From contig CM102289.1 of assembly GCA_046563655.1 (NCBI GenBank), positions 9,052,001-9,116,000 of the forward strand: DNA of 64,000 bases, given 5' to 3'. The position numbers were made by a program, and so were the translations under genes. Positions 2,190-47,921 of this stretch are shown here, one piece after another; position 1 is the stretch's first letter, and the number at the start of each line of letters is the position of its first letter. The notes beneath the pieces are model-generated. The model saw only the letters and a list, made by a program, of their open reading frames with translations, made no database searches and had not been told where the DNA came from. Source of the stretch: Yuukianura sp. NJ FZ-2021 (lineage: Eukaryota).

Positions 2190-3487
2190 TTACTCTACCA
2201 TGTACTTGAGAAAACTGGTTTGGAGCCACTTCAAGTATCTCTCTGCATACGTCTGATTCAGCTTCATACAGTCACTCATGTGGCAGCTGTTGAGCAAATC
2301 GTCATTCATACGTTCAGGATTAGATTTCGGTGAAATTCCTTCGACTAGGTTCTGCTCCTCCGCTAACAAGCGGAATAAAGTGTCCTCGAATTCGGAATTG
2401 GTAAGGAGAGCAGCAGTGTATTGCTTGATGAGGAATTTCCGGTGGTACCAAAGAGACTCATGTCCAGGATAGAACAGCAGCATCCCACGGTTCTCTTTCA
2501 GTTCATCCAAAAGCAACGTTCGGCTGTCGTCTGAACTCAATTGGAATTTCATCATGGAGGAAACTAAAGTCTGCCTGTAGTGATATCCGCAGTAATCTGA
2601 GATGTGTGTGTTGAGCCAAGCATCGGATGCCTGCTTCTCTGAATTGAGTATTCTGATTTTCAGATCATCAGAAACGGGTAATGATAGAAAAGTGTCCAGG
2701 ATCCACCGTCGGTAGTCCCAGGCATGGTAATTGCTAAAGTATTTAGAAGCTGCTTGTTGTGCTAGATTCACTTCTCGGTCAAAAAATTCCATCAAGAATT
2801 CTGTTCCTAGTCCGTTCTGTTTCAGAGAATGTTTGACTAGCCATCTACAAATCAGAAACATTTCAATTAGTTAATTCAAACGTAGACTAATAAAAAAGTT
2901 TATGAAATGTGAGTTAGACTTACTTTCGATAGTAAAATGTTTCAGAAGACTTTGGTTTTCTTGAACAGACGAGTCCGACTAAATGAAATTCTTGCTCCAC
3001 GCTAACATATCCATTGGTAACTGCCTCACGCCGGAAATTCCAAGCAGTAGTTAGATCAGGATTGAGAAGAATAAGCAACCGTGTCAATTCCAAACATTTG
3101 CTCCACTTCTCTCCTTCGGTGAGTTGGGAATAATCGATTTTAGTCTTCATAGGACTTGCATCTTTGGAACTGACGTGGACACATTTTTGAGGCCTCAATA
3201 AAATGAAGTTACAGAAGGAATGTGAGTAAACAAATCCAATACACCATGACTCTAGACCTAGTTTGTGCTCCAGATGAATCACTGGAGAACGGTTGGATTG
3301 GCTCTCCTGAGGTACAATGTCAAACTCGTCTCTAAATGAATAAAAAGCAATGAATCACCACAACTTCCCACTTATGTCAATTGTAACTTTGAATTTTATG
3401 TCAATTGACTTACAATTGATCATCCTTTTCGAACACCGAGTTCAGATTGAGGATGATCCTCTCGGCAACTTCGGCTACTTCGTTCAT
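2190..3487 (-). CDS. PTAR1: Protein prenyltransferase alpha subunit repeat-containing protein 1; exons 3487-3414, 3331-2924, 2844-2190
   Basis: NRSPVIHLEHKLGLESWC, LLNPDLTTAWNFRR, YFSNYHAWDYRRW, SDYCGYHYRQ and YPGHESLWYHR are PPTA-repeat/PTAR1 motifs; splice phases are consistent. Confidence 0.92.
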
Positions 3488-8200: not shown

Positions 8201-10199
8201 CATCTGAGTGGTTTAGAAATTCAATTCACATGTAGTATACAAGTTTGTGAAAAAACTGTTTAAGTTTATATTACGTTAATGTACAAATGTGGAACACATA
8301 ACGATAAGATTAACTAACCTTTTTGTTGGATTTGCCAGTTGCTAATTTCAGACGCGTGCACAATTCTATGCAGTGTTTTTTCTTTACAACTTTTTGAATC
8401 TTTGATTATGCAATGTCCAGTCCAGCCAAAGGTGATCTGTCTGTGACCTAATGTTTCTTACGTGTCAACTCGTGGAAGTTTTAATTTATGTATACACGTT
8501 GCATAATCCAACATCAATGTAAAATGTGACACATTTACAAACTTTTACTACGACTTTAGGTAAATACACGCGGAAATAAGAAACAGACACATGCAAACTA
8601 AAATTTCGCAATTTAGCAAATGAAGGCCGACGGTTTTCTTGGAGGTGACCTTCAAATATTCTCCAGGTCAACTTTTTTTTTCTAAATGCAAAAGTCATCA
8701 TGTCATTTTCAAAATCTTGTCCACATTTTTATGTGAAAGACTTAAAAAGTTAACTTTGAAGTTTTCAGTTGAATTAAAGTTAAGTTTAAAGCGGATTAGA
8801 TTTTGAGAGAACAATAAACAGGATGAATGATATGAATTAAGCTTGAGAATAACATTGGATTTATTCTTGTAAAAGTTCAATTACTTTGTATTGTTTTTAG
8901 TTTTCTAAAGGTCATTGACCTGTTAAACGAGTTTTTCATGACACTACAATTCGAAACTGGTGCACAACTCTATTGTTCGCGGCGGGCAGAAATTCAAAGC
9001 CCGCGAAAATCAAATTTCCAGTGTCAACATGTTTGAAATTGAATTTGACATGTCACGTGTTTCTATCCTTCTCTCTTTTTTTCCTCTCTCTCTTTCGCTC
9101 CTTTGTCATTTTTCTTTTAAATCGAAACGTCACTGGAACGTAATCAATCGAAGGCTGTAGAAATTTTAGAAACTGCGGAGTAACGTTCTTGGAAAGTTTT
9201 TTGAAGTTGACCTTCAGTACTGGACGATAGACAGTAGTTTTTTGAGTTACTGTCTTTCAACGTTTCGATACCATTTCGATAGACGACAATCTCTGTAAGT
9301 ACCTTGAAGACTGAAACTAAGCTAATTGATTACTGATTGAAACTTTCAATTTGAAAGACATTCTATCAACGATCACAGAATCACAGGTAAAGTTAATCAT
9401 GGAAGATTTTTACGACTTAACTTCACTAAAGTTAAATTATGTCCAGCCAACATGGAAAAACATGAATCATACACCAAACCTAATGCATTACCTTCTGCTC
9501 TTGGTTTATTAGAATCCATCAATTCAAAATCCAGGTATTTTCAATCGTCATTCGAAGTCTTATCCAGGCAACAACCGCTGCTCCTCCAGTCGTCAATTGA
9601 CAGTCGCCCGATCAAGTTCCAGCTTTTTATTTCTCCATTTTTCAAACAAAGTCATACCCTACCCTGCCTTACATCACACTCTTCTGACTCAACGTTTTTA
9701 CAACGAAGTACAACGGATACCAACTGACAGATACCAAACAACAACAACTGGATCGACCAATAGCTGCTAAGAAGCATTGCATTTTCGCATTTTGGACACA
9801 CGGATAACGTGATTCTCCTTGATTCTCCGAAAAAAACGGTAAACACTTTTGACATTGTTTTTTGTTATTGCCAAAATCGTAGCTGAATCAGCAAGAGCGT
9901 ACGTGTCGCCGCAAAGTACAATGAAGAGAACAAGAGATATGCCACGGGGTGCTTGACGTGCTTCATGTCATGCCGATGACGACGTTACGGGGATCATCCT
10001 TGCCTCATGTAAATCGCTTTGGTGATTGCATGTGGTACTCCAGACAGACCACTCACTCACTACACAACTCGTGAACTGTTGCTGGACATGAAAGCTGTTT
10101 TACTACGGAAAAACCGTCATGTTTTGCATTCACTGCTGAGTTGGCTCAATTCTCATTTTTTTCTGTTGTTCTGTAGATTTCGCCTGAAGTTGTTGTGGC

Positions 10200-11878
10200 A
10201 TGATGGAAATGATGACGAAAGACTCTTCTGTGTATAAATGGGCCCACAAGGGAGCTGGGGCAATTCAGTCAGGATTTGCATTACTGTCGGCTCATCTCCT
10301 TACTGCACTCCTCTACTGTTGGCATTGGACAATAACTACTGCCAGCATCTGTCGTCAGAAGTATCCTCCAATTGCTGCTATTGAAAACTACTTTATCTCT
10401 GTCTGGAACTCTCTTTGCTCAACAATGACCGTGGAAGTTATTTCGGCGCCGGTGATACTTGAACCGCTTGGACTCCATGATTCATCTCCTCAACTCACGA
10501 CTGCTGCTGTGCCTATTCTCCGCCTCAATTCTGTTGCCATGGACGAATACTTGACTACTGCCAATACTGCTGAAACTGACGAAGTTCCTGAGTTTATTGG
10601 CAGTTGTAGTTACAATAGTAACTCAGACGACTGCGACAGTGGCCTAGTCGGTTCGGATCCAGACGAAAACGAATTGAGTTCAGATGATGCCGGATTTCAA
10701 GAAGAAAGTAACCGAATTCCACAAGAACCTTCTTATCGTCGAGACAGTGACTCTAGTGACATTTCGTCTGATGGGGGCCAAGAAGTCAATGAAAAACAAA
10801 CCAAAGAAGTTGCGACCAGACTCATCTCACAAGTTGAGTCCATGTTCTCAGATGAGCATTTGGCCAAAGATGGATTTCTGTTGAAACACGTTCGACGTCG
10901 GTCTGATGGCTTCGTTTCTCTTAAACTTGTTGCTGGACTGCGCAAGGTCAAACAAATTTCACGTGACTTTCCGACTGTGCTTGCGGCCTTGAAAGAATCG
11001 GGAAAGTTGGAAATCAATTCAGAGGGAACGAAGATTCGTCGTACAGAGGCCTTGACGCCGTACTTGAAGTCACTCCCTGTTGGAGGCGGGAATAAAGAGA
11101 AAGAGAATAAAGCATTTGGAACAAGCAACGGAGCATCTTCTGATTCTGCACAAGATGATCGGTAAGTCACAAAAAACGAAATTTTTAAAAATGATAAGAT
11201 TTTAATTACTTTTTTGAATTTTTGGAATGTTAATTAAAAGTTACCTTGAACTTTGGTTTTTGAACTTGAAACTTAATCTTATGTCTTGAATCTTGTTTTT
11301 GCAGAGTTTTGATGCGAAATGGCTACAACCACTCAAACGGTTACCAAAGACGGAATTCACGGAATAACAGCATCGTTTCTTCTGGAAGCTCCGCCCCGGG
11401 CAGTCGCAATGGCAGTTTCTGCAAGCAATCGAATGAACCTTTGTTTCGGAACATGATGGTCTACGCTCCAGATGAGCCGCAGGGTATTCGGCGCCGTGGT
11501 GGATCACTTCCGATGACCTCAGTCATGTCACATGGTGGCCAGCATCACTACTACCCAGCACCAGCACAAGATGCTGGACCGTTGAGCCAAAAACGCACCA
11601 GTCTCTTCCTGTCAACCAGCCCGCTGCAGGCCGAAGTCCCGAAGTTTCCAATTCGACCAAAGTCAAACAGCTACTGTGAAGGTCTTGGACTAAGAACTGG
11701 AAATGCTGGAAATACTGCCAATACTGGCACCAGCGTCTGGCTTCAGCGGAGAATGGAGTCGAGCCGTGCTGCTTCCGAGGGGTCGGTGGTCACCAATGGA
11801 GTCGTTCGTCAACCCCGTGGCCCGGATGGAACTCGAGGATTTGCTGCTGGGTCGCGTCGAACTCTGGCAGTTATGTAG
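10200..11878 (+). CDS. LARP6: La-related protein 6 (Acheron)-like; exons 10200-11161, 11305-11878
   Basis: La motif (QVESMFSDEHLAKDGFLLKHVRRRSDGFVSLKLVAGLRKVK...KIRR) and C-terminal SUZ-C/LSA motif VVRQPRGPDGTRGF; phase-2 GT-AG intron 11162-11304. Start codon uncertain. Confidence 0.85.
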
Positions 11879-12531: not shown

Positions 12532-13821
12532 TTAGAAAAAAGTCGGAGCGACGTCCAGGACATTGTATGAGTCGTCAACCAGCAAAATTTGGCGCCATAG
12601 ACAAAACGTGTTACACGCATGGACGATATCGAAAGATAAAATATCTCCCGGATTTAGTTTATCCTCTTCGGATATTTCCATAAATGCATGTTGGTCCATC
12701 ACCTTAACAATCTTCCAGTGTTTTGGACAATCGCTGAAACAGCGTTTCTTTTCCTGTTCACCCTCACTTTTTGGCTGGACATGACAAACTTGAAATGGTT
12801 TTGGGAAGTCCACGTCCGTCGATACATCGCGCCGTCCGAAACCAATTATGGCCAGTGTCGGTTCCGGTCGTGACTGGACATAAGCTATGACCTTGAGAGC
12901 TGGTTGAAACATCTGAGCCATGTAACGCTCGGCCAATCGCAGCTCGGTTTCCTTGTACATTCCGACATCATGGATCGCGTAGCACCCCGGACGCAGAACC
13001 GGAACGATTTCTGTGGAAGCCGGGAAATATTTTTCAAGTAACGTATCGAGTTCGTCCGTCACAATGTCGAACCAAACCGATCCGGCTCCAGAGATGACCA
13101 GGTCCCGGCCATCGTCGAATGTCAATGACATAAACAGGAGAGCCTCAAACGCCTTGTTGCAAAACGCGCGAACTTCCGTTTCGGTTTTAAGGACTCCCTC
13201 AAAAAATTCTACTCCGGAAGTGACCAAAGTATTGTCAAACTTTTTGAGTTCTCTCAAAATTTCGGCCAATCCGGTCGCAGTTCTCACGCCTGTCCGTCCA
13301 CCGTCGACGCCGATTTCCACTAAAACACGGATTCGCTGCTTCTGCGCTCCAAAAAATGCTGCGAGTTCGTAGACATTGGTGACAGAGTCCACGAGACAGT
13401 AGAATTCCAACGTAGGATGCTTGGCCAGCATGTTAGAAATGATTTTCATGTTGGTTTTTCCTATCAGCTGATTGGCCATCAGGATTCGTTTGGTGGGGCC
13501 AATCTGTTGAACTACTAATGTCTGCTGGACATTGGCTGTCGTGAATCCCCACACTCCCTCCTTCCGCTGCTGGTCAATAATTTTGGGACACATTGTGGTC
13601 TTGACATGGGGACACAGTTTATACCCCATGTTAACAGCATACTTGGCCATCCGCTCAATGTTACTACACAGGACGGACTCAATGACGCAAACAGTCGGCA
13701 GACTTACGTCTTCCTCCAGGATGTTCCATTTCTGCGTTCCGGAGGTACCGTTCAGTATCGGTTTCCCGATTCCAAGACCTTTGTTCAGTTCCGAATCGGC
13801 GAATTCTACTGGATCGGACAT
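12532..13821 (-). CDS. Fold-type III PLP enzyme, bacterial D-serine dehydratase/'amino acid deaminase' (cryptic DSD)-like; intronless CDS
   Basis: PHVKT PLP-lysine motif, GGRTGVR, SGAGSVWFD, LRPGCYAIHD, GRRD, MDQHAF and an HxC metal-ligand motif (HAC). WNILEEDVSLP and the C-terminal WRQILLVD..Y.V.DV..TFF resemble proteobacterial homologues as I recall them. Confidence 0.88.
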   Translation of the reverse strand: MSDPVEFADSELNKGLGIGKPILNGTSGTQKWNILEEDVSLPTVCVIESVLCSNIERMAKYAVNMGYKLCPHVKTTMCPKIIDQQRKEGVWGFTTANVQQTLVVQQIGPTKRILMANQLIGKTNMKIISNMLAKHPTLEFYCLVDSVTNVYELAAFFGAQKQRIRVLVEIGVDGGRTGVRTATGLAEILRELKKFDNTLVTSGVEFFEGVLKTETEVRAFCNKAFEALLFMSLTFDDGRDLVISGAGSVWFDIVTDELDTLLEKYFPASTEIVPVLRPGCYAIHDVGMYKETELRLAERYMAQMFQPALKVIAYVQSRPEPTLAIIGFGRRDVSTDVDFPKPFQVCHVQPKSEGEQEKKRCFSDCPKHWKIVKVMDQHAFMEISEEDKLNPGDILSFDIVHACNTFCLWRQILLVDDSYNVLDVAPTFF

Positions 13822-13902
13822 AATTTTTTTTTACGTTTTTAACAGAAGTCAATGTATTGCGGGCGAACTGTGGAGGTCAAAGTTTCCGGAAAAAGCAAAA
13901 TC

Positions 13903-34400: not shown

Positions 34401-35704
34401 ACATTCTTGACTCTTCAACAATAACATTCTAAAAAAACTTTTTTGAAAAAGGTGACCTTTGACCTCTGCTAAACAGTTTTTAGACGAAGGTTGAATCAGT
34501 AACTAGTGCCAGTTTTTAGTTTTTGAGTAAAAACACTCTGAGTTTTGAAAACCTCATTTGGAAGAGGAAGGATATGACAAGCAGAGAAAGTGATTACTTG
34601 TGAAAACTTTTTTAAACAAGTTTTTTTTAAACAGTTTTTTTAAAAAACGGTGCCGTTTGAACGACGCGCTGCTCCAAGACTGCTTGTTTAGTGATTTTTT
34701 AGATACTCAGTGTACAACTTCCTTTTAAATGAATTCCCTACGGTTTTTTTCTAAAGTGTTTTCTTCTACGGTGTTTTTTTGAAAGTGTTTTTTTTTGAAA
34801 ACCTTGCCTGCCTGTCTTAAGCACTGAATTGGATTCTTGTGCCAGCGTTTTTATAGTGTTTTAGTGTTGGCGTAGATTTTTTGAAAGTTTTTTCAACTTT
34901 AGATTTTGGTTCCCCCATTGGATTTTAGGTTCTTCTGTCACTGTAACTTCCTCAAGTCCATACCTAAAAATAGCTACAGTGTACACTAACATGTACTAAA
35001 AGACTACAGCTTTGTACGAGCAGCCAAACGAATCTTCATCTTTGCATCTTCCAAACTCATCTTCAGTTTTTTCAATTCTTCTTCAAAGTGCAGATGTGGA
35101 AAAATTAATTCCGAATTCCTCGATACAGACAGCGGAAGTCAAAATTTTGAACCCAAAATCAAGAAATTCAAAGCTAAAACTTTCATTTGGATTTTCGCGT
35201 TTTCAGAATTTATTCAAAAATTGAACTGTTTCAGTTCAAAATCAAAGTTGAAAAATTGAAATCTACTTTTCAAAATTTGGAAATTGCGACAAAGTGAAAA
35301 TTGGAGTTGGAGTGAAAGTGTTAAAACGTTTGTACTTTTGTGAAACTTGGAAATTCTTTGAAGTCGGAAAAACTTCTCCTTTTGTGTGTTTTTGTTTCAA
35401 ACAGGCAGTTCGTGGCTTTTGGAAGAAAACTTTTTAGCCTTTCAGTAAATTTGAAAATTTGCATTAGAGTGTGTCCATTTGAGTTATTTTTCATTTCAAG
35501 GTTTTTTGGCAAGAGGGATTTGCATTTCACTAAAACAAAAAAGTTGAATTTAAAAAAAAAGTTTTAAGTCAAGGAAAGTTTTCTGTGAAAGGTCATTTTT
35601 CATGTTCAAGTGAAGTGTGTCAGCCGTAAGGTAATTTCCGAGTTTTTCAAAAAAGTTTACCCAGTTTTTTGAAATTTTTGACTAAAAAGTGAACTTTCCG
35701 AGGT

Positions 35705-38700
35705 ATGAGTGCGGATGAAGTTGCAGAGTTGGCAGAAGCTATTCATTCCCACGCTGATGCACTTTACGAATCTTGGACAAAGGGGTCAAAGGTCAATCGG
35801 CCCAGAAGTCACTCTTCGACTGACTTTGAACATGGAATGAAAGACACTTTGGAATTGTTGGCCCATCCAGAACTCACTCCCACCCTTGAACATTTAGTGT
35901 CCAACTTTGTGCGGCAAGACAAAGCCAAGAGACTTCAAGGGCCCCCATCTCCACTTCAAGGGCCCCCCTCCTCCGTCGTCATGAGCAGTGCCGTCAAACC
36001 GAGTGTTTTGATTGGTCGAGGGAGAAGTGCTAGTCCAAAGCTTATGGATGGGGATGACCCCTACGGTGGGGGGTCACCTCAAGGTCAAAGGTCAAAGGCC
36101 CTTCCGAAGAGCATTTTAGAAGTTGTGCAGCGATTTGAAGCGCCACAAGTCGAACGAAGATCTCCGAGTCGTGTGCCGTCGCCATCACAATTGAACGCTC
36201 TGATTGGTGTAGGCCCGGTGACGTCAAAATCCATTCACGAAAAACTTTATGGAGTTCAGCGCCATATTCCAATAGTAGCAGAAGCGGGAAATTCAAAAAG
36301 TTCAAAAAAAGAACAAAATCCACAACTCATCCCGACGCTCCACTTCCAAAAAATTACTCCACCTCAGATATTTGCCAATAGTCAACTTGCAAGTACTGGC
36401 AGTACTCAATTGGGAAATACTGGCAGTACTTCTGGAAAAGAACACCGGATACCAATTGTCCAGAAAAATGATGACGAAGTTGATGCTGGCCCAGCATCTT
36501 CCAGCATCAGTCCAGCATTTTACGACCAAAACCAAACTAGTCAACTCCCGACAAACAATATTCACATCATCAATGTCAATATGAACGCGCCTCCAGCGCG
36601 GGAAAAACTTTTAAACAAAAGCCCGGGCATCCAAGCCCTGGAAAAAGAGGAGGAGCGACTGTTCGAAGCTCTGCGGACAGGTCAAGTTATACGAGAACAA
36701 GAATCGACCAATCAAAAAGCAGCTTTTCAGCGCAGGTCACCTGACACTGACATTTTAAACAACAATTCAAGAGTTGCTTTTGCCAAAGAACGGATTAGAC
36801 AAAGTCAAGAACATCCGTTGACTCAGCAGCGATTGGAACTCCAGAAAAGACTTCCAGCACCTTCGAGCAATTTAGCTGCAGCGATTGCGCTGCAACAAGG
36901 AAAAGACAAGTTTAAGCAAAACGGAGACACTAATGTTTCAAATCCTCCCGCTACTCGTCACCATCACATTCGAATTGAGCGGGAAAATTATGGAAATGGG
37001 GGACGGCATGCTTGGGCAAATCTTCAAAGATTGAATGGCGGAGTCAGTTCGGCAAGCGTTGCTGACCGGGTTCAACTTTTTGAAAAATATCCTGCTCATA
37101 TTGTAACTAACGGCACGAGTCATGCGCCACCTCATCAGAATACGACGAGTCCTGCACATCAACACACTCACCACCAAAACTTTGAAAAGCCAGTGATTTC
37201 TCAAAATCATGCTCCGCCGTCATACCAAAGTGGTTCTACGCATGTGCCAAAGGAAATCACGCATCCAATCAGGAAGCTTGAAACGCACTACCATAATTCT
37301 ACCGTAATTGGTCCAATAGGAGACCCACCAAAATACGAATCCCACGTTCATAAAATTAATTCTGAGGCGCCAAAATACGAACCACCAGAATATGGAAAAC
37401 GACAAACGCAAATTATTTCAAACATTTCAAATAATTCACCCAGTCATTTCAAAAATTCACTTCAAACTCAGCAGGTTACACAGCATAAACTTTTCTTTTC
37501 AAAAATTTTTTTTATTTTTTTTCAAATCTCTCTTTTTTTTGTGTGACGTGTTGAGGTCAATTAAGTTTAACTTCAAACGATTCTACTGTAAAAGACGGTG
37601 TGACTTTTATGATTAACTTTTAAGTTTTTATCTCTCCGACACACATTTATCCTGGAAATTTTTAATCAGTCAAACCTTTGACCAGGTTGGATAAAAAAAA
37701 TTGAGTGCAAATATTTAATTCATGAAAAAGACAATTGAAAATTTCTAATCAAAATGCGATTGAATGGTCCTTTCTGTGATTCAATTTGAAAAATTTCGGT
37801 GTACTTTTGTAGTTTTAATTCAATTTAGGGCATGACTCAGTCAGTATGCAGAGGAATCAGTTTTTAGCATTTTTACAGGAATTGATTTGTGTTAAACGTG
37901 TAAATGTGAAGGTGACTCCTTAAAAATTTTTACAACTTAGGAAAATTTTTTACACCTATTGTAGATTTTGCACAGTTTTACAGGTTTTGCATAATTTTGC
38001 AAGTTTTGAGCAAAAATTTGTGTAGGTTGATGAGGATGGGGTGTAATAATGGGTGTTAATTTTCATAAAATAATTAGTATAAGTGCAGTTTAAAGTTTGT
38101 ATTTATTCAAAAATTGATTTATGTTTTTACAGCCCGATTTTTTGACTTCTAAGCATGGTCGAAGCCCCACCTCTTTGGAGAATTTGCGAAGGAGTAACAA
38201 GGAGTCAGTGCCAAGGTTTTACTGGCCAGAAGGAAAGCCTCCGCCTACAGCCTACATCCAACAGACATTAGCCAAGGCCGAGGCGGAATTTTCAAAATTT
38301 CATGCATCAACTACGGCCACGACGAGTCTAAATTACGAAGAATTTGGCAAAGTAAGGCAACTATTTCACACTTTACTTTGTGATGATGATGTAACTTACA
38401 TGATGATGTAATGCAAATGAGGAAAAAGACAAGAACTGCTGTAAAATCAGTTATGTTTATTTATGCTTTTAGTTTCTGCAAAGTCTGGGGATTAGTCTAT
38501 ACTGGAAAAAGCCGTTTTGGACAGCCCTGGGCCTTGTGCCTTCATCTACACTTCAACTGGAGCCCTTCAAGGGCTTCTACCGAACCCTTATTTCACAGTG
38601 TCCAGATGAAGCCTCGAGGTTCATGCGTATTTTATGGACAGCCAGAACTGTACTTACGGCAAATGAAGGCGATTTGTCAACATTCCCTTGCGGAAAAGCT

Positions 38701-40420
38701 TTGGACACGTTTCCAATTGAATTCAAAAAAATTGAACTCCAAATGGCCGATTTCGTTCCTATGATTCAAGATATTATCGATACACATCCAGGTAGAACAA
38801 AAAACTTCAAAAAAACGAAAAAAAAAAGTTTGAATTTCATTCTACTTTTCGAAAAATGTTGAGTTTTTTTTTTAATTTTAGGTCTGGGATTTCTCCGGGA
38901 AGCACCAGAGTTCCACAGTCGTTATGTCACTACCGTAATTTCTAGAATTTTCTATAAGGTGAGCTCATCGATAGCTAAAAAAGTTGATGACAGTTTTCCA
39001 AAATTTTTCAAAATTTTGAATCTTTTAAAATTTCGTTGTTGCAGGTAAACCGTTCATGGTCCGGTCGACTAACGTTGACGGAAGTGCGGCGTTCGAATCT
39101 CCTGCGGGTGATGAAACGACTGGAAGAAGAGACTGACGTTAACGCCATCACTGACTACTTTTCCTACGAGCATTTCTATGTCATCTACTGCAAGTTCTGG
39201 GAACTCGACAAGGACCATGACCTACTCATTGACAAAATTGACCTCTCCAGACACAATGACCAAGGTAACACAAAAGGTCACGAAAGGTCATATAAAAGTC
39301 ATCTAAAAGTCACAAAGGTCACTAAAAGTCACTCACTTCATTTGACTTAATTTCAGCCCTGTCATCACTCATAGTGGACCGCATTTTCAGTGGAACTGTG
39401 CTGCGCGGGTGGGACATCAACTCAACAACAAAATGTCCAACAGGAAAAATGACCTACAGCGACTTTGTCTGGTTCATTATTTCCGAAGAGGACAAGAAGG
39501 ATCCCACGGCAATTGGTAAGCTAGAATTTCAAAATTTCTCAAAAAACTTTTTTTGAAAAGCTTTTTTTTAAACCTTTTTTTTTGAAATTTTCAGAATACT
39601 GGTTCCGGTGCCTTGATCTCGATGGTGACGGGATCCTTAGTCCTTACGAACTCCAATATTTTTACAGAGAACAAGAAGCCAGAATCATCGCCCTAGGAAT
39701 TGAACCCCTCGAATTCTCAAACATTTTCTGTCAAATGGTTGACATGCTCCGATGTTCTTCCAAAGGTAAGCTCAAAATTTGAAATTTGCTAAATTTTTGT
39801 GAAATTTTAATCAAAATTTGCTGGTTTTTCTAGGTGTTAGACTCAAAGATCTTAAGAAGAATCCGCAACTGGCTGCCACATTTTTCAATACTTTGTTTAA
39901 TCTGGACAAGTACTTGGACCATGAGCAGAGAGATCCATTTGCTTCCAGCAGCAGCGGAATCCTGGGTATCGAAATCCCGGATAACGGAGAAACTGACTGG
40001 GATCGATTTGCTGCCACTGAATACGAACTACTCATCGCAGAAGAATCTCCAAGTGACCACATGTAAGTGTCAATTAATGTAATATAATTTCATTAATACA
40101 TTATTAATAATAGATATTTTGCGTTAAAAATCATTTATAGAAAGTATAGATAGAGTATATAAGGAAGTATAGATAGTGTATTAGTATAAGAAGAAATTTT
40201 AAGTATTCCTGTGACAGCTAGATTTCATCAAGCAGAAATTTATTAGGTATTCCTGTAACTTAAATTCTATAATTGATTTAAAACGCAAACTCTCTATTAT
40301 TATTATATTATTTTAATATACTAATACATTTTAGTATAGTGTATTAACTTATTCATTAATTAACATTTTAATTTTTACAGTCACAACGACAGTTCCGACT
40401 TTGAGGAACTGCCATCCTGA
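35705..40420 (+). CDS. PPP2R3: PP2A regulatory subunit B'' (PR72/PR130 family); exons 35705-37474, 38133-38351, 38473-38791, 38882-38958, 39045-39264, 39357-39515, 39595-39765, 39834-40062, 40381-40420
   Basis: [86 protein letters not shown] (EF hand), [14 protein letters not shown]. Confidence 0.93.
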
Positions 40421-40722
40421 GCCACACGGGTCATATTACTCCCACCGAGTAAAATCTAATCAAAATCTAGTTTTCAAAATACGCCAAAAAAGTGAACACT
40501 TTTGTCAAAATAGTTTAAAAATTTCACAAAAAAAAAGTTAGTTAATTAGAGTATTTATACAAACAAATTTTTGCATGTCAACTTTGGTTGGATGAAATTG
40601 GTTGTTATTGTTCAAAGTAAAAGTGAAATTTAATTAAGGAAAACTTTTCATTACTTAAAAATTAAAAGCAGAAAAAACTTTTCAAAATTTTCAAAATTTC
40701 TATTTAGTTAATACTCATTCAG

Positions 40723-43700
40723 TTAACGTGGTCGACCACCACTCATGGCAGACCTTCTGCCCAGGCTGCCACCAAGAGCATAGCTGTCTCCACGTGGAAC
40801 TTGTGGAAACATGCGCTTTTGGAGGTATCTCTCGTAAGCATACAGCGATCGTCGCTTAACAGGTGACGCTGTCCAGTCAATCGCTCGAATGTTCATTTCA
40901 GACATGGCTCCAACCAGCGTCTTCTGATTCATGTGCATTTGGTAGTACAGTCTTTTGGACTCCAGCAGTTGATGATGTGTCCCTGTCTCCACAATGTAGC
41001 CATCTTGTAAAACTATGATGAAATCGGCTTTTTTGACTAACGAAATCCTCTCGGTGGCAACAACTTTGGTTCGATTGTGGCCACAGAAGGCGATGGCTTG
41101 CTGGAACATAGCGTCTTCTTCTTCGTTTAGTGATGTCGTGTGGCCATCGATAAAAATTACTTTGGGATTTCGAATCAGCGCACGCGCAATGATCAGACGC
41201 TGAAGCAACCCACACATCCGATCGTCGTAGCCAAGTGACGAGGCCAGGGTGTCGTAACCCTGGCAACAAATCAGAGTTTAGTAATTGACATTAGTTAATT
41301 AACTTAACTTGGTTGTTGATTAACTTACTTGAGGAAGTCTGATGATGATGTCATGGATTTTTACATCAACGGCGACCTTGACGATTTGCTCAATCGTGAT
41401 TTTATCAGCATCTAATCCGTACACAATGTTTTCTTTTATGCTCAAATCAAAAATTGTCGGACTTTCTTCAAAAAATGCAGTTTCGGCTCGAAATGTTTTC
41501 AAATCCATGGAGAAAATATCAAATTTGTCAAAGAGCTGGAAAAAATAAAATTGAAATAAAAAAGAAACGGTTTTCAAAATTTTGAAATTGAAAATTTTTA
41601 AAACTGACGATGGATCCGCTTGTTGGTTTGTAAAATCGCGCCAGAATGTTGATGAGCATGGAACTGCCAGAATCCGGACCAACGCCGACAATTCCCAAAA
41701 ATCCTTTGGGTTTGACCTCAAAATTGATGTCGTTGAGAGAAATGGGATTTTCTGCACATTGGTAACACAAGTTTTCCACTACAATCGTCGGTACATCAGC
41801 AATTGTTGGCTAAAATTGAAATTTCAGAATTCAAATTTTGAAAAAAATGAAATCGAAATTTAATTTTAAATTTAATTCTGTTATTTTGCCTTGGTCAATT
41901 GAGACAGCCTGGTGGGAGCTTCTTTGATGGTCAGTATTTGTCTAATTTTTGTTGCAGCAGCACGAGCTGACGATGAATTTGGAAACATGCTGAGACCCAT
42001 TCCTGAAAAAAATCAAAATTTCAGAAAAATTACAAAAAATTTTCATGAGATTGAAAAAAATTAACAAAAAAATTTATACCAGCTAGAACCTGATTCCGAA
42101 TGAGTAGCTCCGTAAACCTTTATTAGCCAAGACAAACAGAAGAAAAAATTAGACAATAATGTAATAATTTTTAATGAATAATATAATATATTTTATTCGT
42201 TTCTTATTACACATTGTCCTTACAAAACAAGGTGCCAAGTATTGGTGGCAACGTTGCCAGTTTTAATGTTGTCTAAAGTTCGGCCAGCAATGGCGGCGTA
42301 CATGACATATGGAAATACTCGGCTCAATCCGAAAATCGCATTCCGGTAAATGTTTTCCCAAAAAATTTTTCTAAAAAAAAAATTAGAAAAAATTTACATA
42401 AAATTTTCCTTAGTGTTCATTTTTTTTTTTTGAAAAATTGTCCAACCTTTCAGCTATTTTCAACTGTTCAGTCATTTGTGCTAAAAAATGTTCTTCCAGT
42501 CCAAGCGTAATGACTGTTCTTATGTTCAACACAGCATCAGCTCCAGTCTAGTAATCCAGTACATTATGAAAAATCTAAATAACTTCAAAATTTCATAAAA
42601 TTTTAAACTTTTGAAATTTCTTACTTCAGCAACTTGAGCCAGCATCGTATCTAGTCTAGTGTTCCATGAAATCTGTGACCTGCCATCCAAGTACAGCACA
42701 AGTATGTACACGAAGGACAGCGGAATTAAGATGCTGGCAAATACTGCCAATCCATGCGAATTCTTGTCAGTAGCGGCGTAGTAAATAACTACTATGACTG
42801 AAGACATGAATTGAGTCAATCCTTGACTCAGCACACCAAAAGACACCATCAATGTCTACACTCAAAAAAATTAAAATTTTGAAATTTATTTTTTTTAATT
42901 TTTCGAAAAACTGTTACGTTTTCAATAGCGACGGTATCAATAGACAGACGTTGACACAGAATGCTGATGTCGTTTTCTGGAAGGTCAAACCACTCCAGAT
43001 CCTGCGCTAACATTTTTCTGAACAATTTGACCTTGAGCATGGCCGTTAGTTTGTAACATCCGCATGTAAATAGAGCCGTCTAGCACAAAACTTCAAAATT
43101 TAGCACATTTTTCGAAATTTTGGAAGATTTTTTTTGAAAATTTACCTGAGCAACTGCTAAAATGCCGGCAGTGGTGCCAGCGATAATGAAATTTCGAATA
43201 CTCGGGGTAGGACTCTGGGAAGTTTTCAGTATTCCGGAATGCGTTGTTTCCTGTAGTGATAAAAACAAATTTTCAAAAAACTTCAAAATTTTGAATTTTT
43301 TTTAAAAACATTACCTCGTAGAAGGTTCCGTAAACACTGTAACTAAATGTTGAACAGAAACCGAGAGATCCGGAAATTATAACTGCGAGTACCGGAATCC
43401 ACCAGGCGTGAAATCCAACGACGAAAATATCTTTCCAAGACCTTGCAGGAGCATCATCATCCTAAATTCAACATTTTTTGAAAAATCAAAATTTTCAACA
43501 AATGTAAAATTTTCCAAAATCTTACCAAACTTTCTAAAATAGTTTCGTACTCCTCCCAAAAAGCACCGTATCGGTCCGTTTCTGATTGGATACTCAAAGT
43601 GTCCGGATCCGGATCGTCATCCCGCTCATCCATACTTTGTTCGCTCTGCAGAGATGTTCTTGAAAAGAATCGACTTCGAAAATGCTGGGCAGCATCTCGT

Positions 43701-46700
43701 ATTGCGGGAGCATATGCTTCGCCAGCATTTTCTAGAGTGTCCGAATCACGGATGGCTGGAAGATCGGGTTTCCGTTTATTGGAATTTTGCTTTCTTTTCA
43801 GTTGAGTAACACGGCGCTGCAGAATCGCCAGTCCTACGTTTTTTTAAAATTATCATAATTTGATTTCCAAAATTTTGAAATTTTGAAATTCAATGACTGT
43901 TTACGTTACGAACCCCCAATATTTTTGGCTTTCTTCACCCCTTTGTCTCCGTCTCGTAGATTATCTTAAAAAAAGTACAATTTTTTCTTAAAGTTTTTTT
44001 TTTTGAAAAATTGTTTATATTTTATGAAATTATGAAACTAATTTATTTTTACAAGCTTGTGTGTCCCTCCGGGCGTAGTGGAAAGTGTTAAATCCTCCAA
44101 GGACGTACGGAGTGACTCGTGTTTTTCGTTGGTAATCGTACAAACCCTAAGTTAATTAAATTTTTGATTAATTGAAATTAAAAAGTAATTTAAGTTTTTA
44201 GTAATGTTGAACTTACACTGTCTTCATGTTTTCCAGATTTAGTCAAATCGATGTCCGAATCAATGTCGGAAGCGGCATCTGCATCTCGGTATTTCTTCTC
44301 ATCTCGGTTCTTCTTATCCAGCTTCCATTTTCGTAATGTTTTGGCAAAATTGTAAGATTTTAGTTGAGAAGTTAGTCGTAGCTTCCGTTCAGCTGAAAGT
44401 GACAATTCCAGCAGTTAATTGTCATCGTAATTAAGTTAATTATTAATTAAGTTATCTTGATATTGGAACTTGGAGTACCTGGAATTCCAGCGTCAATTCC
44501 ATTTTCCATCATGGAGTACAGGCCATCAGTTTCCATTAGAAAGGCGTGGCTTCCTTCTTGTAGAATCTACAATAAATAAAATTAAACGGAAATTAAATAT
44601 ATACGTAACCATACTAATGAGAGCATGTAATTCCGATGGAGGTGCAATTTTTGAATAATTTGAGTATCCCAACTTCAAGTGCTTGGGTTTTGAAATTTCC
44701 CAAGAGTGCCCCAATGCCCCACCAAAACGTGATCCCACCATTCGCGGAAACATTTTGGTGTAAGCTCTAGGCGGCAGAAGCTCTTGGGCAAAAATTGCAC
44801 AATTGGATTTTGGATTTGAAATTTCGGATTTTTACGCATTTCTGTTCATTCTCTTTTCGAGAATAGACAAAAATTTGCAAAAATAACATTTTATGTACTT
44901 TTTAGTAAAAGAATGAACGGGTTTGGGCGGAGCTCCACCACACTATGAGCAACATGCTAGTAAAACATAAGTAGAGAAAAATGTCCCTACCTGTCCTCTG
45001 TCCATGACGTAAATTCGGTCACTTTGTCGGACAATGGAATTGATATCACTTGCAGTGACTACGACAGTCGTATTTTGTCTAACTTGATTAATGACTGAAA
45101 GTAAAAATTCTTCATAGTCTTGGTCAGCTTCGCTAACAGGATCGTCTAGAAGTAGGACTTTCGGCTTTTGCAAAAAAGCTCGCGCAAGTGCTATGCGTCT
45201 GCGTTGAGCCAGTCGCAGTAGTTTTCCGTGTTGGCCAACAACAGTTTTGTAGCCCTAGATTTGAAACAAATGTTTTTAAAAAAAACTTCAAATTGGATTT
45301 TTGTAAAAGTTACTAGCCTGAGGAAGTAGCAAAATCTCGTCGTGAACTCCCGCCATTTTGCATGCACCTTCAACTTCAGCTTGCGTCGCTTCCCAATTTG
45401 CATACCGCACATTCTCGTCTACGCTTTTGTTAAAAAGACTGCAAAATTTTGAAGGATAAATAAATTTTAAAAAAAATCATTAAAATTACGAAATTAGCGA
45501 TTGAAGGAATCTCACATTGGTTTTTGTGTGACATGGCCAATTTGGGATCTCAACCAACCAACATTCAGCGCTTCGATGTGACGACCATCAAAGTAAACCT
45601 AAAGTTTTAGGCACCATTACTGAAAATAATCAAGTATTTGAGCGGGAAATTCAAAAATTTAAAAATTACAGAGCCGTCTGTCGGATCGTAAAGTCTGTGC
45701 ATTAGTCTTAAAATGGTGCTCTTGCCACAACCGCTGTCTCCTAAAATGGTAACCTGAAATTAAAAATAAATTCAAACTTGGCGCTTTTTAAAAATACAAT
45801 TTGAATTTCGTGTCTAACGGCGCACAAGTTGTCCAAGTTGAACCGTTAAGCTGACATTCTTGAGAGCGTTGACGTACATTTTCCTGGGATACCGGAACGT
45901 AACATTTTCAAATTCAATTTTCCCAACAGCTTTCGCGCCAGGAATTTCCCCATGCGTTGACATGTTGTCAATTCGCGGTTTCCTGGATTAAAAAAACAAC
46001 AACAATAAAAACGATTTTTTTTTATGAAAAAACGTTTTTTTAATCGATCAATTTTACCAATCAATCATAAAGAAAACGTCGGCAGCTATTTTTTTGGTTT
46101 CAGCGATTATGGCAATGATGTTGAACGTCTCCGTGATGTGAATAGTCGCCAGTACAACACACAGGAAAATCTAATTCAAAAAATACCGCGTGATTCAAAA
46201 TCTCCTTCATTTTCCATCCAAATCTCTAACAGTCCCAATTGGGGCAATATGAGACTGAAATATTAATGTGCATACGACAAACAATGCTCCGCCACCACGA
46301 ATATTTAGGAGTGGATACGTAATGTTTTCGACGACACCTCTTCGGTCACATCCCTGTTCCAGAAAGTCCGTGGATATCATTCGACGTCCGAAGTACAAGG
46401 ACAAGCAGGCTACGTAGTGATACACCGACCAGAGCAAGAAGACGCAAATGCCGGAGTAGCAAGCATACTTCCACAGTATCCGAGCTTCTCGAAGAATCAA
46501 ACCGTAACGGCCACATTCATACTCTTCAGTACTGAACAACTTGACAGCCTTGATGTTTGATAAAACTTGTTCAGCATAACTTTCAGTCGTGTCACTCAGC
46601 TGATCTTCGGCCTTTGTTTCTTGTTTTTCAAAGTGCAGCGCCAACCGTCCAGCTCCGGCCATGAACGGAGTCAGAGTGGCGAAGGTGACGAGCGTGACAA

Positions 46701-47921
46701 GCCAATTGATTGAAAATGCTGTGTACAACAGGCAAGGTACCACCACAATTGCAAAGACGAAGTACCCTACACGTCCTCCAAGGCCGTTTCTGATTATGGT
46801 CACATCACTAACATGATCAAAATACGTTAAGTTGACGTCGGTCGTAAGATATAGTAATGCATGGCATGAGTTGTGGCTACTCACTGGGTCATGTGTCGTC
46901 CGAACTCTCTTTGGATGTAGTTGTCCAGCCATGCCATGTCCTTGCGCAGAATGGATTCAAAGTAGGACAAACGTATCCTAATCGTCTTTGTCCAAAAAAA
47001 TCAAACGTAATATTAACGTCAACGTCAAACTAATACGTAACATATTACGTTATCCAAATGCTGGGCAGTTACGAACTTGATTCTCCGCAGCCAATGAAAA
47101 TGCTCCGGTTGTTACTGCGCTGGTGACAAAAAGGATAACTACAAAAGATATTCAGATATTCATGTACATTAACGACTCATGACAGTAATTGCATCAATTA
47201 TAAAATTTAGGTAAAATGATGGCGGGTACCACATAACACCAAAGCGTGGAGCCATAAATTAGTTCTGACGTGATGAGGCGCAGTGTTATACGACGAAGAA
47301 TTGAAACCAATCCTGTAAGGAATTCAAACGCAAACTTGGAAAGTTTTCAGGATTTTCGAAATGTTTTCTTGAAGAATCAACGGAAATGTGAAGTTACATG
47401 GACCGATTCCTTTCCATTGCTTCATTTCTGCAGTACTGATTATCCAGCATGACCTCAACCCACTTCCCGATCCTTCAAATTCGGTTAAAATTAAGTGTTA
47501 GTTTAATTAATAATTTAAGATTTACTGAAAACTAGTTACGCGCAAATTGTAGTTGGCAGAATAAGAGCCCACAGGATGGCACACACTACGCCGATGCCCA
47601 TCAGCACAAAATCCTTCAGCGTCGCGTAGCGAAACATGGCGAAGTAGCCCAACTCCTTTTGTTTCAGCGCCATGTCCAGCGCTTTGTCTGCTTCCTTTTC
47701 TCTATAACCAAAACAGAAAAAAATATCAGCGATGTTCAAAAATTTTATCTTACGATGAGTTAATTTTTGTTTGTGGAATCTTACGGATCATATCTGGGGA
47801 GGTTGACTTCAATATGGCCGGCCCTGGAGTGACTCCCGATACTTCTGTCAATGTTGGCGGAAGCAGAGACTAATCCTCTGTATCTGCTAGCCGCTGCACG
47901 AGCACTTCGCTTTTTATCCAT
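40723..47921 (-). CDS. Full-length ABCB/P-glycoprotein-like transporter (TMD-NBD-linker-TMD-NBD, more than 20 exons) with degenerate ATPase motifs
   Basis: N-terminal GYFAMFRYAT..D..LM.IG, LRKDMAWLD, YAEQVLSNIKAV, NBD1 GDSGCGKST, ML.QDLEWFD.PEN, and NBD2 IARALIRNPKV...ETGTHHQLL. The exons I traced (not every junction) splice in frame. Confidence 0.85.

Follow-up and report, generated by a model that had tools for sequence, protein, structure and literature searches.

Among ABC exporters with a degenerate ATP site, all that are well studied retain, to our knowledge, one hydrolysing site, and models of the transport cycle rest on that rule. The accessible part of a review of degenerate sites describes how, in CFTR, SUR, TAP, MRP1, TM287/288 and TmrAB, replacement of the catalytic Glu by Asp, loss of the His and an altered signature in the partner domain mark a site that holds ATP tightly and does not hydrolyse it (PMC7756269); the available portion of a second paper names the missing catalytic Glu as the hallmark of a degenerate site (PMC7544095). 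Here we describe an ABCB-type gene from Yuukianura sp. NJ FZ-2021 that appears to depart from this pattern. It lies on the minus strand, from position 47921 to position 40723, of a stretch of 64,000 nucleotides (nt) of contig CM102289.1 (assembly GCA_046563655.1, positions 9,052,001 to 9,116,000), hereafter called the window, and is the sole ABC gene of those 64 kb according to tblastn searches with the canonical ABCB P0005 and with our own gene model. Whereas the asymmetric exporters keep one consensus hydrolysing site, this gene has none, and its second site is the more damaged of the two.

To assign the motifs of the two nucleotide-binding domains (NBD1 and NBD2), alignment columns were set by HMMER against solved ABCB structures, the best chain being C. 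elegans Pgp-1 (4f4c), and the Walker A and Q-loop columns of NBD2 were set by aligning them with a canonical bacterial exporter in tblastn. Against the solved structures, the signature LSGGQ was found to be replaced by LRLAQ in NBD1 and by RMCGL in NBD2, and the Walker B pair D-E by D-D and D-G, respectively, i.e., the catalytic Glu has become Asp in one half and Gly in the other. The D-loop SALD reads SEAD in NBD1 and TSLN in NBD2, while the H-loop His is replaced by Ser and Glu. The alignment to the bacterial exporter showed two further changes in NBD2, namely a Walker A of the form G-VGPDSG-S-S, with Lys changed to Ser and one residue inserted, and a Glu in place of the Q-loop Gln. In NBD1, the Walker A (GDSGCGKST) is perfect, and both the Gln of the Q-loop (VTQKP) and the Tyr of the A-loop (FRYP) are present. 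Site 1, composed of NBD1's Walker A and Walker B motifs and the signature of NBD2, thus combines a kept Walker A, Q-loop and A-loop with Glu changed to Asp, His changed to Ser and a partner signature, RMCGL, that preserves the fourth-position Gly. Site 2, composed of the Walker motifs of NBD2 and the signature of NBD1, has essentially only its Walker B Asp left. Glu, His and LSGGQ occur together in neither composite site. Judged by these residues, the two sites are unequal: site 1 shows the ordinary degenerate-site pattern and site 2 is destroyed. An earlier note on this DNA, written by a model from the letters of the sequence, had quoted ten motif strings and had concluded that both ATP sites are degenerate and that neither looks hydrolytic. 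Each of the ten strings was recovered once in the spliced minus-strand product (they are also visible in the raw lists of open reading frames (ORFs)), and the HMMER and tblastn alignments, in which Glu, the H-loop His and LSGGQ are gone from both halves, agree that neither site has the catalytic set. Both sites do look degenerate, but the loss is not equal, given the Walker A, Q-loop and A-loop kept in site 1 (the latter two were not mentioned in the note) and the missing Walker A Lys of site 2.

With respect to the asymmetric exporters as a group (CFTR, SUR, TAP1/2, MRP1, ABCB11, TM287/288 and TmrAB), as far as the accessible part of PMC7756269 describes them, site 1 is alike in having a kept Walker A, Asp for Glu, a lost His and an altered partner signature. 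Site 2, in contrast, differs from the consensus site of those exporters by its lack of the Walker A Lys, by Gly for Glu, Glu for His and Glu for Gln, and by its partner signature LRLAQ. A second comparison is with the ABCB full transporters of the type IV exporter fold (Pgp-1 (4f4c), ABCB4, ABCB1, ABCB11 and Ste6). The gene resembles them in domain order, Pfam matches and motif spacing, but it is without both catalytic Glu residues, both H-loop His residues and both LSGGQ signatures, and in NBD2 the Lys of Walker A and the Gln of the Q-loop are absent as well. It differs further in the exon of its first transmembrane domain (TMD1), which is only ~24% identical to the best-matching full-length ABCB, in a linker of ~170 residues and in a conserved tail of ~55 residues. 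Open-access text on ABC exporters with two degenerate sites, on pseudoenzyme and pseudo-ATPase ABC proteins and on degenerate arthropod ABCBs, searched along with the degenerate-site review (PMC7756269), yielded no full-length ABC exporter that is described as conserved and as degenerate at both sites. The accessible part of the 'Subfamily J' paper has no bearing on the question of a doubly degenerate ABCB (PMC7339416), and a paper on Collembola gives only ABCB gene counts, in a table for Folsomia candida (PMC10087712).

To obtain a gene model, exons were traced by eye on three-frame displays and the model was then verified by script, with splice junctions inferred from the sequence alone (Table 1). 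The product has the order TMD1-NBD1-linker-TMD2-NBD2 in a single polypeptide, and both halves of a canonical ABCB are covered in order. Two versions of the model differ at their 5' end: a 26-exon model starts at the ATG at 47921 and has 1480 codons, and a 25-exon model starts at the ATG at 47673 and has 1425 codons. Neither contains an internal stop, and both end at the stop codon at 40725-40723, in agreement with the earlier statement that the traced exons remain in frame. The span first proposed, 40900..45760, lies inside the gene, which reaches ~47.9 kb at its upstream end and 40.7 kb at its downstream end. All 25 acceptors of the 26-exon model are AG, and its donors are GT in 23 of 25 cases and GC in the other two. 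Introns are short, 22 of the 25 measuring 62-106 nt and the remaining three 227, 424 and 400 nt. Two possible defects of the model were ruled out, i.e., a frameshift at 46956-46884, where a canonical 77-nt intron removes the frame clash, and an additional linker exon within the 400-nt intron (~44125-44040), where the sole GT donor gives a TGA at the next junction. Hydropathy peaks are present for transmembrane helices (TM) 1-6 and 7-10.

Evidence on selection came from a metagenome scan, which returned two loci, L001 (2140 bp, encoding protein P0151) and L002. The latter (L002:2437-5866) was set aside as unrelated, being a bacterial pair of ABC exporter genes with no introns and 55% G+C; as an observation in its own right, the first NBD of that pair has LLLDD, and the pair is a classic heterodimer with one degenerate site. 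Since L001:1-2140 is collinear with window 46172-39896, and since its end falls in the final exon of the EF-hand (PP2A B''-like) gene that is the convergent neighbour in the window as well, L001 is the syntenic locus of a related organism. Four consecutive exons running from the end of TM6 to the Q-loop of NBD1 (exons 7-10 of the 26-exon model) have equal lengths (113, 157, 84 and 83 nt) and equal splice sites in the window and L001, and the second half of the NBD2 Q-loop exon (exon 25) and the entire last exon are also intact in L001. Across the four exons, 106 of 145 residues are identical, and the proportions of differing nonsynonymous (pN) and synonymous (pS) sites are 0.163 and 0.713; the corresponding values are 27 of 38, 0.174 and 0.741 for the second half of exon 25, and 96 of 173, 0.291 and 0.824 for the last exon. 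Synonymous sites are at or beyond saturation, so that corrected ratios, 0.06-0.08 where computable, are rough, and the uncorrected pN/pS, 0.23-0.35, sets a conservative ceiling. In another test, independent of the first, homologous segments of the window and L001 were globally aligned and compared with 30 shuffles each. All six exon segments, with DNA identities of 0.70-0.81, scored above every one of their 30 shuffles, whereas all four introns and the 3' flank, with identities of 0.39-0.59, fell inside the shuffle range. No part of the gene is better conserved than the Walker A and Q-loop exons of NBD1 (each with 79% protein identity to L001 by tblastx), and the Walker A of L001, GDSSSGKST, preserves GK(S/T). 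Since pN is far below a saturated pS, and since exons stand above shuffles where introns are at shuffle level, purifying selection has acted on the coding sequence over the long term, for long enough to erase neutral similarity. The neutral evolution that the earlier note had named as grounds for giving up its proposal was therefore not observed in the comparison with L001, and its view that the gene is not a pseudogene gains from both the unbroken frame and the constraint (pN 0.16-0.29 against saturated pS 0.71-0.82).

The last exon could be compared more widely. A protein search with this exon gave 90 candidates, 10 of them at E <= 0.01; two are close, P0151 (56% identity) and P0152 (53%), and the other eight are canonical ABC domains with no more than 48% identity. 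The position of the NBD2 catalytic Glu is held by Gly in all three of the window protein, P0151 and P0152. None of the three has the H-loop His (Glu in the window, Gly in P0151, Glu in P0152), and in each of them R(M/I)(C/L)GL replaces LSGGQ and keeps the fourth-position Gly. P0152 has lost the Walker B Asp as well, which is Asn. The substitutions in NBD2 thus predate the split of these relatives and go back to their common ancestor. The tail of ~55 residues that follows NBD2, for which ordinary ABCBs have no counterpart, contains a motif, K.RS..AYERYLQKRM..Q.PR, that is invariant in the same three proteins. It opens with a basic-basic-X-Ser site (KRRSL), which we take to resemble a kinase consensus. 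The linker between NBD1 and TMD2, ~170 residues long, is strongly charged and has several basic-X-Ser/Thr sites.

Assignment of the gene to the ABCB group rests on several searches. Three of the five pieces scanned had a Pfam match (ABC_membrane (PF00664) or ABC_tran (PF00005); scores in Table 1), while the last exon and the TMD2 exon at 42625..42855, each scanned alone, had none; TMD2 aligns to the canonical ABCB P0005 by tblastn. For all three exons searched against PDB sequences (TMD1, NBD1 and NBD2), the top matches were ABCB full transporters (Pgp-1, ABCB4, ABCB1, ABCB11, Ste6 and plant ABCBs), with ABCC proteins and MsbA lower; E values reached 5e-39 for the last exon and 2e-23 for the NBD1 exon. 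When the TMD1 exon was compared by HMMER with 1.84 billion representative sequences, 184 matches were obtained at E <= 1e-3 and only two at E <= 1e-10, both of them short single-exon ORFs, P0001 (50% identity) and P0002 (39-40%). The best full-length ABCB among the same representatives reached E 4.7e-10 at ~24% identity. An alignment of the exon with P0001 and P0002 has 52 invariant columns. Since the start of L001 overlaps the C-terminus of P0001, these two are from the same or a near-identical sequence. A word-indexed protein search returned 1144 candidates for the TMD1 exon, none at E <= 0.001, and five for the exon with the NBD1 signature and Walker B, none at E <= 0.01, while the ESM Atlas gave generic bacterial ABC_tran clusters only for the last exon. 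The gene is probably a member of a small, fast-diverged ABCB lineage, so far seen only in this springtail-like arthropod and a few close relatives.

We consider it probable that this is a real, intact gene whose product is an ATP-liganded but non-cycling ABCB, with the role of a regulatory subunit, a receptor subunit or a passive conduit, and the best explanation of its motifs would be a lineage that abandoned ATP hydrolysis long ago. NBD1 would still bind ATP, since it retains, in well-conserved form, Walker A, the Tyr of the A-loop, the Gln of the Q-loop and the Asp of Walker B, and since the partner signature keeps its fourth-position Gly. The nucleotide would stay stably bound there as a cofactor or a ligand, in the manner of the degenerate site of CFTR, SUR, TAP or MRP1. 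Site 2 would be nucleotide-dead, since a site without the Walker A Lys is not expected to hold phosphates, and a hydrolytic alternating-access cycle should not run, because there is no consensus site. The protein would then most probably be a non-pumping membrane protein, its conformation set by ATP binding or by the long charged linker and the conserved tail. A role as a primary active exporter seems unlikely from the motifs.

Several observations weigh against an intact, non-cycling ABCB, and they are best considered with the explanations that they would favor. Asp at the catalytic position can support slow hydrolysis in some ABC proteins. The gene could still encode a slow ATP-driven transporter or flippase, in which site 1, with its Walker A, Q-loop and Asp-Asp pair, hydrolyses ATP at a low rate for a specialised substrate. 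The nucleotide-binding core of NBD1 is indeed intact and strongly conserved, and ABCB1 with Glu changed to Asp in both Walker B motifs retains ATPase activity, although a residual one only, according to the accessible part of PMC7756269. However, site 1 has Ser in place of the H-loop His and faces a partner sequence, RMCGL, that is without the Ser and one Gly of the signature; the same combination of residues makes up the non-hydrolysing site of known asymmetric exporters, as far as the available text goes (PMC7756269), and no second, consensus site is present that could drive the cycle. We therefore regard a slow transporter as unlikely. Another explanation is a dying gene, i.e., an unexpressed or barely functional duplicate that lost its constraint recently in this genome and whose open frame is a leftover. 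The syntenic copy L001 is damaged. Its counterpart of the NBD1 Q-loop exon reads TAA at a codon that is CAA in the window; ~20 nt past the donor of this exon, the contig goes on with the first half of the NBD2 Q-loop exon, reduced to a frameshifted remnant; and the 14 exons in between (11-24 of the 26-exon model), occupying ~4 kb in the window, are missing. L001 is apparently a recently inactivated gene (a pseudogene or deletion allele) or a chimeric assembly with errors. Assembly error is the less likely, because it would have to account for a nonsense codon, two or more frameshifts and a deletion, which seems too much, and the locus seems to be dispensable in at least one relative. Decay would also fit the extreme divergence of the gene from normal ABCBs (see the E value and TMD1 identity of the best full-length match above) and the two GC donors, CAG/GCTAGT after 45318 and AAG/GCAAAA after 41890, both of weak consensus, the latter with no in-frame GT donor as a substitute. 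Since the other 23 donors are likewise loosely conserved (e.g., GTACCC, GTTCGT and GTGCGC), however, weak donors seem to be a normal feature of this ABCB gene. Moreover, 4.3-4.4 kb of coding sequence run over 25-26 exons without a stop or frameshift, pN is far below a saturated pS, exon DNA is conserved where intron DNA is randomised, and the tail motif is invariant in all three family members. The damage in L001 does not cancel this long-term constraint, yet it keeps decay alive as an explanation for the window copy, albeit one that we consider distinctly unlikely.

The remaining points concern the model itself. The linker junction is ambiguous (44217/43816 or 44219/43833), and the long introns of 424 and 400 nt could conceal small exons, so that the degenerate motifs might be an artefact of exon choice, with canonical NBD exons elsewhere in the locus as alternative cassettes, or of mis-assembly. 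Against this, tblastn of the canonical ABCB P0005 with the whole window matches the modelled exons only and no further NBD-like segment, and independent sequences (L001 with P0151, and P0152) carry the same degenerate strings. We consider such an artefact highly improbable. The positions of TM11 and TM12 are unusually polar and lie below the hydropathy threshold, and the relatives offer no comparison for the signature, Walker B and H-loop of NBD1 or for the Walker A of NBD2, exons that L001 is without; both points also count against a conserved, non-cycling ABCB.

The surroundings of the gene are summarised here. The window is AT-rich, with 34-45% G+C, and has numerous short introns; Rfam and tRNA scans of it gave no matches. 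Its other genes include one with protein prenyltransferase alpha repeats (2190-3354, minus strand), one with La and SUZ-C domains, LARP-like (10188-11878, plus strand), and one resembling D-serine dehydratase (12532-13830, minus strand). Since these neighbours are of housekeeping type, the DNA around the ABCB locus is normal and gene-dense rather than a desert of repeats or transposons. The convergent neighbour (35693-40066, plus strand) has EF-hand exons (Pfam EF-hand_13 and EF-hand_5/6) and is similar to B''-type regulatory subunits of PP2A. A 617-codon open frame at 35693-37546, 5' of the EF-hand exons, has no Pfam match and may be a disordered N-terminal exon of this neighbour. Between the two convergent genes, 66 nt of the 3' flank (window 40356-40421; L001:1851-1916) are 73% identical to L001 (blastn E 2e-4), with the rest of the flank at shuffle level; this conserved stretch may be a 3' untranslated region or a regulatory element. 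A low-complexity word, which translates as K-F-Q-N-F or N-F-E-N-F and has an a/t-rich unit like 'caaaattttgaaaat', recurs in many introns of the ABCB gene and in its 3' flank (e.g., at 41560-41600, 42870-42900, 43290-43310, 43870-43900 and 40680-40710), and looks like a genome-wide short repeat.

Table 1. Exons of the ABCB-type gene in window coordinates, in order of transcription, with the positions of the motifs that they encode
Feature	Position	Strand	Remarks
Probable first coding exon (ATG 47921; MDKKRS...)	47785..47921	-	Inferred only, from open frame, GT donor and 83-nt intron, in frame with next exon; no homology support
Alternative ATG 47673, FAMFRYA motif, TM1	47540..47701	-	Traced, frame verified
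Loop and start of TM2	47230..47312	-	Traced, frame verified
TM2	47077..47138	-	Traced, frame verified
Intracellular loop 1	46885..46985	-	Followed by 77-nt intron, open in another frame; frame verified; spacing presumably fits the ABCB pattern
Large TMD1 exon, TM3-TM6	46276..46807	-	Pfam ABC_membrane, 64.7 bits (cut-off 28)
End of TM6	46058..46170	-	L001 homologue of equal size with equal splice sites
Start of NBD1, A-loop FRYP	45826..45982	-	L001 homologue 157 nt
NBD1 Walker A GDSGCGKST, intact	45670..45753	-	Motif 45741-45715; L001: GDSSSGKST
NBD1 Q-loop VTQKP, Gln kept	45516..45598	-	Motif 45532-45518; DNA identity to L001 81%
NBD1 helical subdomain	45318..45438	-	Ends at GC donor CAG/GCTAGT
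NBD1 signature LRLAQ, Walker B LLLDD, D-loop SEAD, H-loop position Ser (VTASDI)	44991..45254	-	LRLAQ 45218-45204; LLLDD 45155-45141; SEAD 45134-45123; VTASDI 45059-45042; Pfam ABC_tran, 28.4 bits (cut-off 25); 4f4c alignment
End of NBD1	44479..44566	-	Traced, frame verified
Linker exon, 3' boundary uncertain (alternative donor 44219)	44217..44392	-	Traced, frame verified
Linker exon, 5' boundary uncertain (alternative acceptor 43833)	43526..43816	-	Traced, frame verified
TM7	43315..43461	-	Traced, frame verified
Loop, TM8	43146..43250	-	Traced, frame verified
TM8 to intracellular loop	42918..43079	-	34.6% identity to canonical ABCB P0005 (tblastn)
TM9-TM10	42625..42855	-	Traced, frame verified; no Pfam match alone
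Exon between TM9-TM10 exon and TM11-position exon	42447..42547	-	Traced, frame verified
TM11 position	42224..42370	-	Traced, frame verified
TM12 position, 38-nt exon	42080..42117	-	Needed to hold frame
End of TM12	41890..42002	-	Ends at GC donor AAG/GCAAAA
NBD2 Walker A position GVGPDSGSS (no Lys, one-residue insertion)	41609..41809	-	GVGPDSGSSM 41686-41657; Pfam ABC_tran, 24.5 bits, under cut-off 25
NBD2 Q-loop position FFEESP (Gln to Glu)	41329..41535	-	Motif 41475-41458; second half 71% protein identity to L001
Last exon: signature RMCGL, Walker B IFIDG, D-loop TSLN, H-loop position Glu (VATER), ~55-residue tail, stop	40723..41259	-	(R)MCGLLQ 41220-41200; IFIDG 41157-41143; VATER 41061-41047; tail motif 40857-40792; 4f4c alignment

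A more specific proposal can be made for the non-cycling ABCB, and we put it forward tentatively, as a possible but still doubtful one. On the evidence of the motifs, springtails may have a small ABCB family that turned from pumps into ATP-liganded, non-hydrolysing membrane proteins, through which a conductance or a partner protein is gated or regulated by the joint action of an NBD1 stably occupied by ATP, an NBD2 that is dead, a linker of 170 residues that resembles an R domain and has basic Ser/Thr sites, and the new tail motif K.RS..AYERYLQKRM. If true, this family would parallel CFTR and SUR independently and in a more extreme form, having given up hydrolysis altogether. A full-length ABCB that is under purifying selection without a consensus site would be a natural experiment on how the type IV exporter fold works if it has only ATP binding, or no nucleotide cycle at all, and the window protein may offer a ready 'catalytically dead' scaffold for structures of ATP-bound, non-cycling states. 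For arthropods more widely, gene-family censuses count such genes as detoxification ABCB pumps, whereas pumping by a protein of this kind would be improbable.

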